DNA from: Candidatus Saccharimonadota bacterium
GTDB lineage: Bacteria > Patescibacteriota > Gracilibacteria > UBA1369 > 2-02-FULL-48-14
Direction: 5' to 3'
Assembly (NCBI GenBank): GCA_016699145.1
Contig: CP064962.1
Span: forward strand, 870,001 to 902,000
Length of the DNA stretch: 32,000 nucleotides
Below, piece by piece: positions 7,890 to 20,874 of the stretch (its first letter is position 1; every line of letters starts with the position of its first letter). Position numbers and translations under genes: made by a program. Under the pieces are notes generated by a model. It searched no databases, was not told where the DNA came from, and saw nothing but the letters and a program-made list of their open reading frames with translations.

Positions 7890-7979
7890 TGGCGGAGAGG
7901 GCGGGATTCGAACCCGCGATACGGTTACCCGTATGCCGCTTTTCGAGAGCGGTGCCTTCAACCACTCGGCCACCTCTCC
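7890..7979 (-). tRNA. tRNA-Ser (anticodon CGA), CCA encoded
   Basis: The reverse complement folds as GGAGAGG/CCTCTCC acceptor, anticodon stem CCGCT/AGCGG with loop CTCGAAA, a long variable arm, T arm GCGGG-TTCGAAT-CCCGC, discriminator G and CCA. Confidence 0.9.
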
Positions 7980-13065: not shown

Positions 13066-13912
13066 CTAGGAGCTGTTAACATAAGACTTTGAGTAAAAGT
13101 GCCACAAGGCAGAGGGAGATAAAGGAGGCATACATCAGGTCTAATTTGTCATAGCGAGTTGAAATTCTTCTGTAATTTTTCATTCGGTGAAATAGGCGTT
13201 CAATCTCGTTGCGGTAGGCATAAATGTTCTTGTTGTATTCCCACGGAAATTTCATTTTTGCCTTTGGAGGAACGACTGGAGTTATGCCTTTTCTTTGCAC
13301 AGCTCCAGAACTTTGTAGCATGAATAACCTTTGTCCATAGCCAAATGATCTACTGTTTTTGGAAACGAATAATCTCTCAAAATTTGTTTTCCAACTTTCA
13401 CATCGCTCACTTCACCACCTGTTAAAACAAAGTGCATCCCATGATCTGGATCTCCAGCAATCATGTGAATTTTTGTAGTGTACCCACCTCTACTTCGGCC
13501 TAACGCTTGTGGCCCTTTTTTTCATGGCTCCCGCTGCACTGTGGTGCGCTCTATTTGTTGTACTGTCCAGGAAAGCTATTCGCACTTGAAGTACATCTGC
13601 TACTTCAAGTGCTCTAAGCATTTGTCCAAAAGTCCAGATTCGCTCCACCGTTTGTATCTTGTATAAATCGTGTGCCAGTCATTCTCTTTTCTCTGTAATC
13701 GTAGGGCATTTGTCTCCATGCGCACCCTGTTTTAAGTACATAACAAATGGCATCCATGCAACGTTTCAGTGGAATCTTTTCAGGCTTTCTGGGCTTTGGA
13801 AAATAAGGCTGGATCAGTTTGAACTGTTCATCCGTTAGCATCTGGTACATGGCGTTAGGGTTAGAGTAACTTCACTCTACACCACTCCTCTATTTATGTT
13901 AACAGCTCCTAG
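13066..13912 (-). mobile_element. IS5-family insertion sequence (IS427/IS1031-like size), decayed
   Basis: Perfect 19-bp terminal inverted repeats CTAGGAGCTGTTAACATAA (13066-13084) and TTATGTTAACAGCTCCTAG (13894-13912). The outer CTAG may be a palindromic 4-bp target duplication. Confidence 0.8.
13076..13850 (-). pseudogene. IS5-family DDE transposase, broken into at least 3 frames
   Basis: N-terminal MLTDEQFKLIQPYFPKPRKP ... LKTGCAWRQMP. Other frames give IAFLDSTTNRAHHSAAGA, MIAGDPDHGMHFVLTGGEVSD and NEIERLFHRMKNYRRISTRYDK. These pieces lie in different frames and are separated by stops. Confidence 0.8.
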
Positions 13913-14695: not shown

Positions 14696-14749
14696 TGGCG
14701 GAGAGTCAATCATACACAGTTTAGGGTGTTTGCTAAGCAGTGTTTATAA
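14696..14749 (+). repeat. att-like core TGGCGGAGAG + shortened recombinase-tail remnant (copy A)
   Basis: The 10-mer is identical to the tRNA-Ser 3' end. The following sequence matches copies B-D apart from a 33-nt in-frame deletion. Confidence 0.7.
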
Positions 14750-14763
14750 AGTATTTTAACCCC

Positions 14764-15210
14764 ATGCAACTGTTCAAAAAATTATTTACATCGATATTCA
14801 TTTTATTATTTACAGGATGTTCCTCCGAAGTAGAGCTCCCTTCCTATGTAACGACTTATGAGTTGTCCATGGAAACAGCCCAGGAGCTCTCAGAAGGTTT
14901 TTTACTGGCTTTGGACGAGGATCCAGAAAGCACCAAGAAGTTTGTATACGACACATTAGAGAATGGTGAGGACGTACTACAACTCATTGTCGAACACAGA
15001 AGGTTCCAAACTCCACACAGTATAACGGTCACTCAGCTTGAGCATGGGGAAGGAACCCTTCCTACAGGGGAGATTTTCTTCAGAACGAATGCTATCGGTA
15101 CTTTCACCTGCGAAGGGAGTGATCATGCTTCAGATTTTGACCTCATGTGGATGTACAACGAAAAAGACAATCGTTGGGAACTTCTCAGTTTCAATCTTGA
15201 GGCGTGTTAA
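14764..15210 (+). CDS. predicted lipoprotein
   Basis: MQLFKKLFTSIFILLFTGC signal/lipobox. It is the only gene between core copies A and B. Confidence 0.6.
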   Translation: MQLFKKLFTSIFILLFTGCSSEVELPSYVTTYELSMETAQELSEGFLLALDEDPESTKKFVYDTLENGEDVLQLIVEHRRFQTPHSITVTQLEHGEGTLPTGEIFFRTNAIGTFTCEGSDHASDFDLMWMYNEKDNRWELLSFNLEAC

Positions 15211-15223
15211 TTCAAACCTAATC

Positions 15224-15359
15224 TGGCGGAGAGTTGTAGACGACGTTAGAACCGCCATCGAGGCTAATCATACCCAGTTCAATGTCTTTACGAAAACGGT
15301 ATTGGCGAATGGCTTTGGTGGGACTAAATGAGGTGACTTTTAGCGATTTGTCTTTTCAC
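15224..15359 (+). repeat. att-like core + recombinase C-terminal tail (copy B) + conserved block
   Basis: The core is followed by WRRVVDDVRTAIEANHTQFNVFTKTVLANGF-coding sequence. The downstream ACTTTTAGCGATTTGTCTTTTCAC is related to 17401-17425. Confidence 0.75.
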
Positions 15360-15427
15360 TTTACAAGGCCTTTATTGTAGCAGATTTTTCTGCAATAATC
15401 GGGGCACAGTTATTTTCTATTCCATTT

Positions 15428-15820
15428 ATGAAACACTTTTCCTTGTCACTCCTACTGTTAAGCCTTTTACTTAGCGCCTGTGGCGGACCTCAAGTAGCCG
15501 ACTACGCCAATGGCTCCCTGACGTATGATTCCTCTATATGGAACTATAACGCAGAAAGAATGCTTTTGGTCGCGAAAAAGGATGAAACCTGTTGGGTGAA
15601 TTTAACAGGAGGAAACCCTTCTGATATTCTTCCTGGCAGCCTTACAGATAAAGATGCAGTCGTAAATGAGGGAGTGACACTTTACAAAACAAGCACGGGC
15701 GATGTTCCCTTTGCCTCTTTTGAGAAAGATGGAAACACTTTCTACGCTCTCACTGGAGGGATGGATCTTAGCCAAGACCTCTGCATAGGTTACGTTAGCG
15801 CATTGGCTAACGCGAACTAA
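15428..15820 (+). CDS. predicted lipoprotein
   Basis: MKHFSLSLLLLSLLLSAC with a canonical lipobox. It is the only gene between core copies B and C. Confidence 0.65.
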   Translation: MKHFSLSLLLLSLLLSACGGPQVADYANGSLTYDSSIWNYNAERMLLVAKKDETCWVNLTGGNPSDILPGSLTDKDAVVNEGVTLYKTSTGDVPFASFEKDGNTFYALTGGMDLSQDLCIGYVSALANAN

Positions 15821-15921
15821 TGAGTCCGAGAAAAGTCGAACGCCCTTCCTACTTTAGGTAGTGGATTTATACGCTCGTAGCGCATGCTTTGTCATATGTT
15901 TTGTGTTCTCAATAAGTTCTA

Positions 15922-16074
15922 CAAAGCGGTGAAAGTGCTGCTTTGGACTCCATTCGTCTACGGTGGCGGAGAGTTGTAGATGACGTTAGAACCGCGATCG
16001 AGGCTAATCATACACAGTTCAAGGTGTTTACGGAAAGGGTTTTGATAAAAACATGCCCACTGAAAACCAAATAA
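15922..16074 (+). repeat. recombinase 3'-end remnant (42 bp) + core + tail (copy C), continuous reading frame
   Basis: 15922-15973 is identical over 52 bp to 20742-20793. It reads [17 protein letters not shown] then VVDDVRTAIEANHTQFKVFTERVLIKTCPLKTK and a stop. Confidence 0.8.
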
Positions 16075-16086
16075 ACACAGCGTCTT

Positions 16087-16608
16087 TTATACTGGGATTG
16101 GCATTTTGTTGTATCGGTAAAGATAGCTTTCGCGGAAATCGCGGATAATACCTTCAATCAATTCAATATGATATTCAGGGGCTTGGATACCATAAAGCGC
16201 AATTTCTCGTTCCAAGGTGGGACCTTTCAATTTAATAGTGCCAAAATCGAATAGGCGACCAAAGAGTCCTTGCTCCAGTTCTATCTTTTCGATATTGCGG
16301 ATAGAAACGATTTCTTTTCGAATGAATAAAATACCTCTCTTGTGGATAACGTGAAGGGTATTGATTTCGTAATATTCAAATCCCCAACTCATAACGATAT
16401 ACACACTAAAAAAGATCTGAACCACCAAAATGAAAAGGCCAGTCCAAAAGTTATTGATTTGAATGGCAACAGTCAGAAGGAAAGCCAGAAGTGCAAGAAG
16501 GCCTCCAAGCAAGAGTTTTACGAGAAGGAGCACGATAGTCTCTCGCAAAACCTCCTGCCTGGAGAAAGAGCCTCCCCCTAAACGATGTTGTCTTTCCAGA
16601 TCTTCCAT
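16087..16608 (-). CDS. bPH_2 (YdbS/YdbT-like, DUF304) membrane protein
   Basis: Two TM segments are followed by HKRGILFIRKEIVSIRNIEKIELEQGLFGRLFDFGTIKL, which fits the bacterial PH-domain pattern. Confidence 0.6.
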   Translation of the reverse strand: MEDLERQHRLGGGSFSRQEVLRETIVLLLVKLLLGGLLALLAFLLTVAIQINNFWTGLFILVVQIFFSVYIVMSWGFEYYEINTLHVIHKRGILFIRKEIVSIRNIEKIELEQGLFGRLFDFGTIKLKGPTLEREIALYGIQAPEYHIELIEGIIRDFRESYLYRYNKMPIPV

Positions 16609-16633
16609 CGCGATAAGAGTTTAAGGATATACC

Positions 16634-17086
16634 TTACTCTGCTTCTATCGAAAGGAGCTTTTTTTCCTTTTGCTTCTTAGGAAGACGAACAGTCAAAGTC
16701 CCATTTTTAAACTTGCAGCTTGCGTCGGCAGCATCTACATAACTTGGGATCCCAATTTCTTGGTAGATGGAGCCATAGCTGCGTTGCTTTCGGAAGTAAT
16801 GCCGATCTTTGTCCTCCTTACTCTCCTCTGTTTTCCCTTGTATCACGATTCTTCCATTTTCCACATTCACCTCTAGATCTTTGGGGTCATAACCTGGTAC
16901 CTCAATTTCGGCTACAAATTCCTTGTTCGTTTCGTAAACGTCAGACTTTGGCATACCAATAGAGCTGAAAGAACTCACCAGAGAGGGGAAGTTTTGGAAA
17001 GGGTCCCAAAACGATTCTTCAAAAAGACTATTCATAACGTCTCGAACCGTTGGGAGATTGCGTTCCTGAAGTTGCGTATTTTTCAT
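16634..17086 (-). CDS. Hsp20/alpha-crystallin family small heat-shock protein
   Basis: Alpha-crystallin domain PKSDVYETNKEFVAEIEVPGYDPKDLEVNVENGRIVIQGK ... GSIYQEIGIP ... ASCKFKNGTLTVRLPK. Confidence 0.88.
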   Translation of the reverse strand: MKNTQLQERNLPTVRDVMNSLFEESFWDPFQNFPSLVSSFSSIGMPKSDVYETNKEFVAEIEVPGYDPKDLEVNVENGRIVIQGKTEESKEDKDRHYFRKQRSYGSIYQEIGIPSYVDAADASCKFKNGTLTVRLPKKQKEKKLLSIEAE

Positions 17087-17110
17087 GGTTAAAGAGGTTA
17101 AAGAATAAAA

Positions 17111-17151
17111 TTAGCACTCAACATTTTAGAGTGCCAAGAGCCAGTCGTCAA
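17111..17151 (-). promoter_or_regulatory. CIRCE (HrcA operator) overlapping a sigma70-type promoter of hsp20
   Basis: TTAGCACTC-N9-GAGTGCCAA at 17111-17137, one mismatch to the consensus TTAGCACTC-N9-GAGTGCTAA. On the minus strand there is TTGACG (17146-17151), a 17-nt spacer and TAAAAT (17123-17128). Confidence 0.7.
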
Positions 17152-17287
17152 GATTTTTTAGTAAGACCTTGAAAATGGCTAGATTGAGAAATCTTTCTGA
17201 TTTTGATAAAAGTGTTAAAAAGTTCTTAAAAGAAGGATAGAACTCGACAATACCTTAAAGAAGCCAAGAATCTTGGTTCTAAGCAAC

Positions 17288-17448
17288 TGGCGGAGAGTCG
17301 TGGACGACGTTAGAACCGCCATCGAGGCTAATCATACACAGTTCAATGTCTTCGCGAAAACGGTTTTGGCTAACGGATTTTAATGGTAACAGAGGCGGGT
17401 ACTTTAGAGCGATTGGCTTTTGAACCTACATCTGTTATTTTGCATGGG
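17288..17448 (+). repeat. att-like core + recombinase C-terminal tail (copy D) + conserved block
   Basis: The core is followed by WRRVVDDVRTAIEANHTQFNVFAKTVLANGF and a stop (17288-17383), then the block ACTTTAGAGCGATTGGCTTTTGAACCTACATCTGTTATTTTG. Confidence 0.8.
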
Positions 17449-17562: not shown

Positions 17563-18600
17563 TGAATCCGAACACTTAATGGATTAGGATTTTTTGAGTT
17601 TTGTGATTTCGCGGTGCACCAAAAGAGCTTCTTTTGGGGTGAGATAATTCAAACACTTGAGCGGTCTACGATTGAGTTTTTCTTCAAGCCTTTGAATGAA
17701 AGCTTTACTGTATTTTGAAATATCACTGCCTTTAGGAATATCTTTCCGAATGATTTTATTCGTGTTTTCCACTGTGCCCTTTTCCCATGAATGATAAGGG
17801 TGGCAAAAGTAGATTTTAATGCCCAGCAGCTTCTCCAATTCCTTGTGTTTCTGGAAGAGAATATCATTGTCCGTAGTCATGCTTTGAAGCTCTGGAAAAC
17901 GTTTTGGATTCGCAAAAAGCCTCATGAACTTCTTCAATCGTCACTGGGAAGATCTTTTCAAGAAATGAAACTCTTAGTTTCCTGTCCACAGCAACCAAAA
18001 GTGAACCCTTTCCCGTTTTCCCTGAAACTATGAAATCTCCTTCAATGTCTCCCACATCTTCTCTCATTTCTATTCTGTTAGGACGCTCATTTATGAACGT
18101 TCTGTCCGAAAGTTTTGAAAGTACTTTGGGCCTCTTTCTTCGATGTTTTGTTTTCTGCTCACGTTCATACTCCAAAGCTCTTCCATAGGGGCTTTTTAGG
18201 AAGCGATAAATACTGTCTTTGGAGGCAAAAAGGAAGAGCTCCCTCTTGGCATTTGAGTCTCCCAGAAATAGCGGCTGGAGAAATATCATCTCTTAGTTTT
18301 TCTTCTACGAAATCTCTCAATTTCTTGTTCATTGCAACTTTCTTCCCTTGAAAGCGAGCGGAGCGCCTTCGTACATAGCTTTTCTGCTGTGCTTTCTTCG
18401 GGTTATAGCTGCCATTCACTTCATTACGTTTGAGTTCATCTGAAACAGTTGAAACACTTCTCTTCAGACTTTTAGCGATAGCTCTGAGCGAATATCCTTT
18501 CCCCTTCAGTATGAATATTTCATCCCTCTCACTTTTGGAAAGCTGTGAGAACTTCTTAGCGTTTTTTTCATGAACTCATCTTACCAAGTGTTCGGATTCA
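17563..18600 (-). mobile_element. IS30-family insertion sequence, decayed
   Basis: Terminal inverted repeats TGAATCCGAACACTT (17563-17577) and AAGTGTTCGGATTCA (18586-18600) enclose IS30-type transposase fragments. Confidence 0.8.
17584..18571 (-). pseudogene. IS30-family transposase, reading frame broken into at least 4 pieces
   Basis: HTH part KKFSQLSKSERDEIFILKGKGYSLRAIAKSL. Middle part GDIEGDFIVSGKTGKGSLLVAVDR. C-terminal part TTDNDILFQKHKELEKLLGIKIYFCHPYHSWEKGTVENTN. The pieces lie in different frames, and the ATG at 18571 is out of frame across a 7-A run. Confidence 0.8.
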
Positions 18601-18652: not shown

Positions 18653-19729
18653 ATGGGGCGCGTCGCCAACCGAGCAGCTGCAATTCCATTACTGGAAGCT
18701 CTCCTTGCCGAAACCGACAAGACGGCAGTGCTTAATGGATTGCGAGCAATAAGAATCGGAGGAAACCCTTTGGGCTTTGAAGCAGGGTTTGAAGCAAAAG
18801 ACCTTCCAGCTATTAAGGAAGCAATTGGTGAAGTTATCGCCCAGATGCGAGAACTGAACGGTGAAGTCGCTGGACTTTCAACTGCTATAAACAAAGGTCT
18901 CGTAGGAACTGCTAAGACTGGACTTGAACAGGAAGGCACTTATGAAACTCAACTCGAAGGTCCTCAAGTGGAATGGGTAAGAAAAGGAATCGAAGCTCGT
19001 TATGATCGTACCCGTCTTGTTAATGCTCCGCTCCTTGAAGAGGAAGGAGTACCTGCTTTCCCCGACAAAGAAGCAGCTCTAAAATCTGCTTTGAAGCAAC
19101 TTACTCGTGAGCAGGTTGCTTACATGATGGAGGAGGGTCGCTCCCCATTTATGTTCCAGATGAAATTGGTTGGACCTAGTAAAAAAGGAATTGATTTGCA
19201 AAGGACTCTTGTTAATGGGCAGCCAAAGAGGATGGGTACACCCAAGCAAGGGCAACAAGAAATGTATGTATGGGAGGGTGCTGAACGTCATTTAGCCAGC
19301 AAACCTGCTGGAAAAACAGAATGGAAATGGGAATTTGTTCAAGGAGAGCAAATCATCGAACCTCAAAAAGAAGATGACGTTAGCTTACTGGTAGAAGACC
19401 GAGTTAAACAGGTAAGACGTGCTAGACCCAAAGGAATGCGAGGTACAGACCGTTATACCTTAGCTACGCTTATGGCAGATGGCTTAGAGGCAGGAAAACC
19501 ACTCGACATTCGCTTCAAAGGAGATGCGATGAATACCGAAGAATATGAAGTGTGGAATGCTACCTTGATGGATGAAGAAGGTGAGTTGACAGAAGGTCAA
19601 TATCGTTGTCTGGTTGGCGGTGGTTTCGTTCCTAATGATCGGTACGCGTACTTGTATAGATTCAGCGTGCTTAATCGGAATGGTGGTGCGCGTTTCCGCT
19701 CCTCGGTTGATGGGTCAATAGAGGCTTAG
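18653..19729 (+). CDS. hypothetical protein (358 aa)
   Basis: Long ORF followed by a clear terminator. The C-terminal GGGFVPNDRYAYLYRF..GGARFRSSV faintly recalls the DUF4256-type ending. The N-terminus may have been severed by the IS30 insertion. Confidence 0.55.
   Translation: MGRVANRAAAIPLLEALLAETDKTAVLNGLRAIRIGGNPLGFEAGFEAKDLPAIKEAIGEVIAQMRELNGEVAGLSTAINKGLVGTAKTGLEQEGTYETQLEGPQVEWVRKGIEARYDRTRLVNAPLLEEEGVPAFPDKEAALKSALKQLTREQVAYMMEEGRSPFMFQMKLVGPSKKGIDLQRTLVNGQPKRMGTPKQGQQEMYVWEGAERHLASKPAGKTEWKWEFVQGEQIIEPQKEDDVSLLVEDRVKQVRRARPKGMRGTDRYTLATLMADGLEAGKPLDIRFKGDAMNTEEYEVWNATLMDEEGELTEGQYRCLVGGGFVPNDRYAYLYRFSVLNRNGGARFRSSVDGSIEA

Positions 19730-19994: not shown

Positions 19995-20874
<880 letters not shown>

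Follow-up and report, generated by a model that had tools for sequence, protein, structure and literature searches.

A serine recombinase gene family of Patescibacteria that appears to span its own attachment site: orphan recombinase 3' ends in an array beside a tRNA-Ser gene

The tRNA-Ser locus and its four orphan tails

Relics of a large serine recombinase (LSR) gene beside a tRNA-Ser gene are described here for a window of 32,000 nucleotides (nt), the whole stretch of DNA that was analysed (Candidatus Saccharimonadota bacterium, assembly GCA_016699145.1, contig CP064962.1, positions 870,001 to 902,000 of the forward strand). The window contains an intact tRNA-Ser(tga) gene at 20784..20874 (minus strand, identified with ARAGORN), the presumed integration target, together with four direct copies of the last 10 nt of this gene, which is the hallmark of tRNA-associated elements. 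These copies share the 10-nt core TGGCGGAGAG, start at 14696 (copy A), 15224 (B), 15964 (C) and 17288 (D), and are each followed by a short open reading frame (ORF), referred to as tail in the following. With one mismatch, the core (TGGCGGAGAGT) is also found at 20784 and 7890, the 3' ends of two tRNA-Ser genes, giving six matches in the window (four copies plus two tRNA ends) compared to 0.46 expected by chance. At the tRNA-Ser(tga) gene it occupies 20784..20793 and reads as antisense to CCA, discriminator base and six acceptor-stem nt; judged from its sequence, this segment would be the crossover region. From left to right, the array consists of flank, copy A, a lipoprotein-like ORF, copy B, a second lipoprotein-like ORF, a 42-nt recombinase relic, copy C, genes for a bPH_2 and an Hsp20 protein, copy D, an insert resembling an insertion sequence (IS), an ORF of 358 amino acids (aa), the truncated LSR gene and the tRNA gene.

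The recombinase gene of the window, ORF 19995..20831 on the plus strand, is a 5'-truncated pseudogene comprising the zinc-ribbon/coiled-coil part only, and reads through the core into the antisense of the tRNA. Its sole domain match is Zn_ribbon_recom (PF13408, E=1.1e-8), and it aligns to residues ~270-531 of full-length relatives, so that it lacks ~270 residues at the N-terminus, the catalytic domain among them. Since the N-terminal LSR half, i.e. the resolvase-type catalytic domain with the serine nucleophile, was found nowhere in the window, the gene has to be considered dead. The databases list an identical protein for a Candidatus Peregrinibacteria genome. The gene spanning the site is that of a serine recombinase and does not have the chemistry of a tyrosine recombinase. 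A preliminary description of this DNA had placed the TGG CGG AGA of the core at 20784 in frame with the recombinase gene, which holds for ORF 19995-20831.

Read in frame with TGG, the tails of copies A, B, C and D stop after 17, 35, 36 and 31 codons, respectively. Copy B (15224..15331; all four copies lie on the plus strand) is composed of the core and tail WRRVVDDVRTAIEANHTQFNVFTKTVLANGFGGTK, copy C (15964..16074) of the core and tail WRRVVDDVRTAIEANHTQFKVFTERVLIKTCPLKTK, and copy D (17288..17383), taken as the distal junction of the innermost element, of the core and tail WRRVVDDVRTAIEANHTQFNVFAKTVLANGF, each tail being closed by its stop codon. The sequences behind these three cores are 81-100% similar over ~94 nt, and all three encode WRRVVDDVRTAIEANHTQF over 19 codons, in which the five nucleotide differences (GTT/GTC, GTA/GTG, GAC/GAT, GCC/GCG and ACC/ACA) are synonymous third-position changes throughout. 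Between B and D, 9 of 31 codons differ, eight of them synonymously and one by a Thr/Ala change. These counts agree with those first reported, apart from the in-frame deletion in copy A (14696..14749; core TGGCGGAGAG and tail WRRVNHTQFRVFAKQCL up to the stop codon), which had been given as 33 nt and actually measures 30 nt, corresponding to 10 codons (VDDVRTAIEA) with the proposed recombinase-binding arm among them.

An upstream ORF feeding into the tails is not consistently present, and a stop codon immediately precedes TGG in copy A as well as in a related locus (L002). In case of copy C, the tail is contiguous and in frame with a relic of a recombinase 3' end (15919..15963, plus strand), which corresponds to the left (P) arm of an attP-like junction. 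Between 15922-15973 and 20742-20793 there is no mismatch (100% identity over 52 nt, of which 42 nt precede core C). This 52-nt block is thus shared without any difference by relic junction C and the live junction, while the adjoining tails C and D differ by ~14%; the identity could be due to the same recombinase lineage or to a recent conversion. Additionally, a CGTCTAC / GTAGACG repeat lies on both sides of the window core. The window comprises relics only, namely a dead recombinase and four orphan tails, which are the marks of successive integrations.

Divergence of the tails

Metagenomes were scanned for codons encoding IEANHTQF, which yielded 12 further tails, all of them located behind a tRNA-Ser-type core; two others, those of L002 and L032, were reached via the recombinase and not via the tail pattern. 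The minimum number of changes in codons 4-27 was counted for 11 gap-free tails of other genomes and metagenomes, and the ratio of nonsynonymous to synonymous substitution rates (dN/dS) was determined according to Nei-Gojobori. Changes at the first, second and third codon position amount to 10, 6 and 27, i.e. 27 of 43 fall on the third position (p=7e-5), and exclusion of the eight codons fixed by the search pattern leaves 7, 6 and 20 (p=0.0012). The window copies alone, over the same codons, give 2, 1 and 9 (p=0.004). Values of dN/dS range from 0.05 to 0.20. As a control, differences between copy D and the tail of L012 were counted past the stop codon, where they are spread flatly over the three phases (6, 5 and 5 over 136 nt). 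The earlier proposal that the tails evolved under purifying selection as coding DNA is thus supported by the larger sample, in which substitutions spread evenly over the codon positions would have spoken against it and in which the concentration at the third position persists.

Identical amino acids are moreover encoded by different codons in different tails, for instance TAI by ACC GCC ATC or by ACT GCG ATT, and for the Arg of the VRT motif, most tails use AGA and L031 uses CGG. One stretch behaves differently: GTTAGAAC is located 21 nt from TGG (+21) in every subfamily and is nearly invariant as DNA, which fits a second role as right arm of the attachment site. A structured-RNA reading of the tails was rejected, as no Rfam match was obtained and a common fold was unsupported (consensus energy -12.8 kcal/mol, covariation term -0.43).

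Recombinase family and its junction with tRNA genes

A one-genome-per-species scan with a profile of the recombinase C-terminus resulted in 80 loci, nearly all of them in assemblies of Patescibacteria, also known as candidate phyla radiation (CPR). In ~70 of the 80, the conserved Trp codon of the LSR gene lies exactly at the first base of a tRNA 3' end (CCA) encoded on the opposite strand. Altogether, 11 tRNA types occur at these junctions (Ser, Gln, His, Trp, Glu, Met, Ile, Asp, Pro, Leu and Asn). As a consequence of this arrangement, the proteins terminate in ..W-x-x-(D/E)SNP.., as encoded by the T loop read in antisense.

Relatives of the window protein match the domains Resolvase, Recombinase and Zn_ribbon_recom, and intact ones (the L032 LSR, P0004 and P0064) give a PF00239 match and retain the Y-x-R-K-S..Q motif. 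The AlphaFold model of P0064 (mean predicted local distance difference test score, pLDDT, of 87) matches the solved LSR structures 9dxd, 9rah, 9iu2 and 4kis with a probability of 1.0, among them the phiC31, Bxb1 and LI integrases. In this model, a helix formed by residues 517-543 passes through W530 into the tail with pLDDT values of 83-88; exchange of the tail would therefore cut through a predicted structured element.

A tyrosine recombinase gene is located upstream of the LSR gene in 11 of 70 loci, which are those closest to the window, and in L115. More precisely, loci L023-L034 and L115 carry a gene for a tyrosine recombinase of 370-415 aa and a helix-turn-helix (HTH)-like ORF of 125 aa directly upstream of the LSR gene, and both are absent from the other 59 loci. 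As these 59 loci keep the LSR-tRNA junction, the neighbouring tyrosine recombinase was rejected as a general integrase; being limited to 11 of 70 loci, it leaves the LSR as the recombinase common to all of them.

Some loci show further peculiarities at the tRNA gene. In L001 (1400-1607), the gene of full-length LSR P0004 runs into a tRNA-Gln-like copy with a 21-nt insertion in the anticodon-loop region, and an intact tRNA-Gln gene (1536-1607) follows ~55 nt beyond this copy. Loci L011 (at 2684) and L034 (at 5193) contain partial tRNA-Ser 3' ends of 18 nt (core plus 8 nt) followed by unrelated DNA, the one in L034 being placed between LSR gene and real tRNA. Such partial ends suggest that insertions of a second type, with another crossover point, occur at the same tRNA.

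Tails at far ends of elements and in intact recombinases

Far ends of integrated elements are visible only for loci whose element is shorter than the 10-kb flank. Here, the first 7-10 nt of the core are repeated upstream and followed by a short in-frame ORF, and in-frame tails with the motif W-x-x-VV(D/E)DVRT were found in L002, L032, L042, L044, L047, L053 and L094. Their sequences are WRRVVDDVRTLIETHHTEFSMFAKTVLNFQ, closed by a stop codon, at tRNA-Ser (L032), WLGVVEDVRKVF at tRNA-Gln (L042), WGAVVEDVRTIFERRNDATIYIPDM at tRNA-His (L044 and L047), WLHVVDDVRTRIVQNKGYLYIPDL at tRNA-Gln (L053) and WYRVVDDVGTAIRQFDGYIHIPQL at tRNA-Leu (L094), the last four continuing beyond the part given. Recombinases of these loci are ~40% identical to that of the window, and their tails still align without large gaps.

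A first protein search with the reconstructed window protein as query returned integrated or truncated forms only. Tail-bearing full-length homologues were retrieved by means of a junction profile, an exhaustive HMMER search and, subsequently, P0064 as query. Full-length P0064 ends in LCLEWRSIVEDVRTAIMNYKGLIYIPKLSIS before its stop codon, and P0193, P0198, P0201, P0213, P0254 and P0299, likewise full-length, end in the same W-x-x-[VI]V[DEN]DVRT motif. In L031, a full-length LSR of 547 aa reads through the core into WLAFYTEVRTHFKASGG and a stop codon. P0250 (567 aa), which is 63% identical to the window fragment, carries the tail IRLKWRSIVNDVRTIIEENQEKFNAFSEILM; in BLASTP, it aligns continuously through core and tail with the attP form of the window gene that was reconstructed as the preliminary description had proposed. 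The core of attP hence lies inside the integrase ORF, with full-length LSRs reading through it into the tail and junction C being contiguous in the same manner, and the possibility that intact homologues never contain the tail peptide no longer applies. Additionally, short database ORFs (P0009-P0016 and P0021) consist of a recombinase remnant, W and a tail; they belong to three subfamilies, and within their contigs these ORFs are chromosomal relics resembling junction C.

Both forms of the gene coexist among close relatives. Among 80 close P0064 homologues, the tail forms the C-terminus in no fewer than 14, and no fewer than 48 terminate in tRNA antisense. P0194 and P0195, for example, are 83-84% identical to P0064 and end in WRGRPDSNRR and WRARPDLNRR, respectively, at tRNA-Asp. 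P0194 (84% identity) thereby ends like the window gene, in line with the earlier suggestion that integration replaces the C-terminus by tRNA antisense; such a replacement of the 3' end by host-derived sequence is seen for the window gene and for homologues across the family. A comparison of L107 (tail form) with L116 (integrated form) revealed TGGCGG as the only DNA shared past the junction. For L116, which harbours an integrated relative of P0064, a far-end tail was not found within the 10 kb at hand. The contig of P0005 (L103) breaks off a few bases past the junction and was thus not informative.

Downstream of tail-bearing LSR genes, further element genes are found instead of a tRNA gene, and the neighbourhood includes cI/Cro-like HTH pairs, an ImmA-like peptidase and Rep_O. 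In L112 (7496-9395) and L114 (51-1899), the tail-bearing LSR gene is located beside a divergent cI/Cro-like HTH pair, an ImmA-like Peptidase_M78 and Phage_rep_O, which constitutes a lysogeny module of temperate-phage style in presumed CPR elements. In L115, the neighbours are a diversity-generating retroelement (DGR), a helicase and a methylase, and the element is related to the integrated one of L002. The DGR (RVT_1 + bAvd) resides beside a ResIII helicase of 858 aa in both loci (L002 1928-5788; L115 6423-10286), the whole block having opposite orientations relative to the LSR gene.

Integration model

Based on these findings, copies A-D are best explained as distal junctions (attL-type, in the order host flank, core, tail) left by successive integrations, into the tRNA-Ser(tga) gene at its 3' end, of elements whose LSR gene lies across its own attP, a reading to which a probability of roughly 0.87 is assigned. 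The anatomy of the array, the coding-type divergence of the tails, the uninterrupted passage from recombinase into tail in intact homologues and the tRNA-CCA junction found throughout the family were all observed directly; the crossover, in turn, would have been catalysed by an LSR of this family. Within Patescibacteria (CPR), a large recombinase family shares this design of a gene placed across its own recombination site.

In the proposed mechanism, the last conserved recombinase codons (S-I-R-L-R) would form the left arm of attP. The core would comprise TGG, which encodes the Trp, and the two codons behind it; its 8-10 nt also occur in the tRNA, as antisense to CCA, discriminator and acceptor stem, and the W-x-x sequence would be set by the target tRNA. 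The following 27-33 codons (VV[D/E]DVRT...) would serve as right arm and, at the same time, as true C-terminus of the enzyme. Crossover in the first ~6 nt of the core would then leave the tail at the integrated element's far end and fuse the recombinase ORF to tRNA antisense, by which the last ~30 amino acids are exchanged. The tails would differ mainly by synonymous changes because their divergence occurred at a time when they were coding in free elements, and junction C would have arisen by fusion of an older recombinase 3' end to the tail of the next element. Summing dyad scores over nine attP-form junctions gave a peak between 5 and 6 nt after the start of TGG (75 compared to a background of ~48) and a second peak at 10, which is weak evidence for the position of the crossover; the first peak lies inside TGGCGG, the shortest identity between attP form and tRNA.

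The direction of accretion is illustrated by two metagenome contigs sharing an identical 30-nt flank, tgtcgacaaaaattgtcaacagaatattct. In L012 (at 3302), this flank abuts the tRNA, and in L015 (at 382) it abuts core and tail, the tail of L015 being out of frame by 4 extra nt. The two contigs are a natural pair of unoccupied and occupied site and show that new elements enter next to the tRNA, displacing older material outward.

A further, more tentative proposal, which we hold to be possible and somewhat doubtful, is that the C-terminal exchange acts as a switch reporting the integration state. Since translation of the tail is possible from the excised form alone and the tail is under purifying selection, we infer that it serves a step specific for the free form, most likely integration. 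The conserved tail, as a continuation of the predicted helix with a Y-I-x-I-P motif, would accordingly be needed for attP x attB recombination, and the integrated, tail-less enzyme would perform excision only. Excision would in any case have to tolerate an arbitrary C-terminus on the integrated enzyme. If the switch exists, directionality would be partly hard-wired by the position of the gene across attP in a CPR-wide clade of serine integrases, the target being set by the last few bases of a tRNA.

Several observations weigh against the integration model as a whole. A circular or excised form of the window's element type was not found, and two IMG/VR scans, one with the tail pattern and one with the recombinase C-terminal profile, were empty. 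Simple tandem integration predicts recombinase remnants ahead of each copy; at junctions A, B and D, unrelated DNA extends right up to the core and such a remnant is absent. The near-invariance of GTTAGAAC as DNA implies that conservation is partly not at protein level, and the first 25-30 nt of the tail probably function as a DNA-binding arm as well. Furthermore, the tyrosine recombinase might contribute in the 11 loci closest to the window. A conserved host-side arm to the left of the cores was also searched for, and no convincing consensus emerged.

Alternative explanations

The missing remnants at A, B and D would be accounted for by an integron-like store, in which core plus tail is the recombination site and cassettes devoid of a recombinase are moved singly by an LSR acting in trans. 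The small size of cassettes A to C, which measure 0.5-1.3 kb and hold one or two genes each, and the occurrence of similar short arrays beside tRNA-Ser in L008-L012 and L021 would agree with this. However, the right ends of the cassettes do not carry a conserved arm resembling a recombinase 3' end, so that circular cassettes would lack a complete attP, and neither a circular cassette nor an empty-site pair for a single cassette was found. Decay is evident from the deletion in A, the frameshift in L015 and the truncated recombinases, and the tails are already explained as recombinase coding sequence. Overall, such a store is improbable.

Even less probable is conservation of the tails solely as DNA, i.e. 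as the right recombinase-binding arm, with reading frame and peptide being incidental. The constant spacing of GTTAGAAC in all subfamilies, a weak dyad symmetry of the arms centred in the core and the appearance of copy A, which lost this stretch, as a dead site would be expected of a binding arm. Such an arm, however, explains neither the period-3 variation in the TGG frame nor conservation reaching 60-90 nt from the core, well past a half-site of ~25 bp; moreover, distant subfamilies keep the amino acids with different codons (TAI; Arg as AGA or CGG), and full-length recombinases continue across the tail and reach a stop codon at a consistent spacing.

Finally, a function of the tails as leaders, promoters or small structured RNAs conserved for expression of the downstream cargo, for which similarity reaching past the tail stop in certain pairs (229 nt between D and L012; also B with L008 and with L022) and the same-strand ORFs beginning just past tails A and B might be quoted, is very improbable given the lack of an Rfam match and the weak fold mentioned above, cargo that is not the same from cassette to cassette and, in C and D, is encoded on the opposite strand, and post-stop DNA free of the period-3 pattern.

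Cargo and further features of the window

Cassette A contains an ORF of 156 aa (14740..15210, plus strand) without Pfam match, in which an internal start at 14765 would give a lipoprotein-like signal, MQLFKKLFTSIFILLFTGC, as recognized by eye. The ORF of cassette B (15428..15820, plus strand, 130 aa) has no Pfam match either and, again by eye, has a lipoprotein-like signal ending in LLLSAC. Cassette C carries two genes on the minus strand (16087..17086), encoding a bPH_2 membrane protein (16087-16608) and an Hsp20 protein (16634-17086). Similarity of the cargo of cassettes A to C to any of the fetched loci was not found. Cassette D is interrupted at 17563..18600 by what looks like a small IS-type insertion of ~1.04 kb, framed by a perfect 15-nt inverted repeat (TGAATCCGAACACTT / AAGTGTTCGGATTCA, 17563-17577 and 18586-18600) and containing two minus-strand ORFs, 17584-17937 with a weak rve_3 match and 17864-18289. 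The remaining ORF of element D (18653..19729, plus strand, 358 aa) gives no Pfam match; related DNA is present in elements of L009 and L021.

Immediately to the left of the array, an ORF of 81 aa (13076-13321, minus strand) matches the C-terminal part of DDE_Tnp_1 and represents a transposase fragment. The second tRNA-Ser gene of the window, tRNA-Ser(cga) at 7890..7979 (minus strand, ARAGORN), ends in the same 10-nt core without any recombinase or tail alongside, and looks like an unoccupied potential target site.

Relation to known systems and significance

Integrase genes that overlap their attachment site are known from other mobile elements. In Myxococcus phage Mx8 (IntP/IntX), attP lies inside the integrase gene, and integration creates a new 3' end and hence an altered C-terminus with altered properties (PMC6070905). 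The present system resembles Mx8 in having attP within the integrase coding sequence and in yielding a recombinant gene with a new 3' end on integration; in contrast, Mx8 Int is a tyrosine recombinase, and here an LSR is concerned, with crossover in the last ~6 nt of a tRNA gene. The 'suicidal' integrases of the SSV family, found in archaeal viruses and plasmids, are described as having the recombination site within the ORF, tRNA targets and a gene that is disrupted on integration (PMC7253208). These are tyrosine recombinases whose gene is split into two inactive pieces, whereas in the present family 27-33 codons are exchanged and the ORF stays open. By analogy, Mx8 and SSV are regarded as mechanistic parallels, the system of the window being a member of neither.

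With the phage LSRs phiC31, Bxb1 and A118/LI, the family shares the organization of resolvase domain, recombinase domain and zinc ribbon with coiled coil, a fold predicted to match, and probably a short attachment region with a small core, but differs from them by the overlap of gene and attP and by the CCA end of a tRNA as target. Among 50,697 deposited phage genomes, the best match was ~26% identical, and the C-terminal region was not covered in any of the ten matches listed. Serine integrases were stated not to be known to target tRNA genes in the Islander paper of 2015 (PMC4383910). Tandem accretion at a tRNA is well described for tycheposons, where integration pushes older elements outward, leaving behind partial tRNA repeats, degraded integrases and cargo (bioRxiv 10.1101/2020.12.28.424599). 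The displacement of older elements at the tRNA is common to both systems; most tycheposons, however, use tyrosine recombinases and longer tRNA fragments, in contrast to the 10-nt core with recombinase coding tail found here. Likewise, tRNA-island elements rely on a tyrosine integrase, whereas the recombinase common to all loci of this family is an LSR. The array differs from integrons in that the tail alignment does not support a folded attC-like site, IntI is absent and the repeated unit codes for part of a recombinase. Neither a serine integrase lying across its attP nor a tRNA-targeting LSR from CPR was found described in the literature, an absence that is not proof. By domain content and fold, the family is an LSR clade that is similar to Mx8 Int in the overlap of gene and attP.

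Serine integrases are valued tools in genome engineering, and their one-way reaction is normally ascribed to coiled-coil interactions together with a separate directionality factor. If the model is true, a clade whose integration rewrites the C-terminus of the enzyme would add a second, genetic layer of control, with such rewriting having so far been described for tyrosine recombinases alone (Mx8, SSV). The clade would also demonstrate that tRNA genes do serve as targets of serine integrases, namely at the CCA/acceptor end, and the at least 11 tRNA species used would provide a natural series of specificity variants. For Patescibacteria (CPR), a common kind of temperate element would be identified, which would at the same time account for short orphan ORFs and repeat arrays near tRNA genes that are now annotated as hypothetical proteins.

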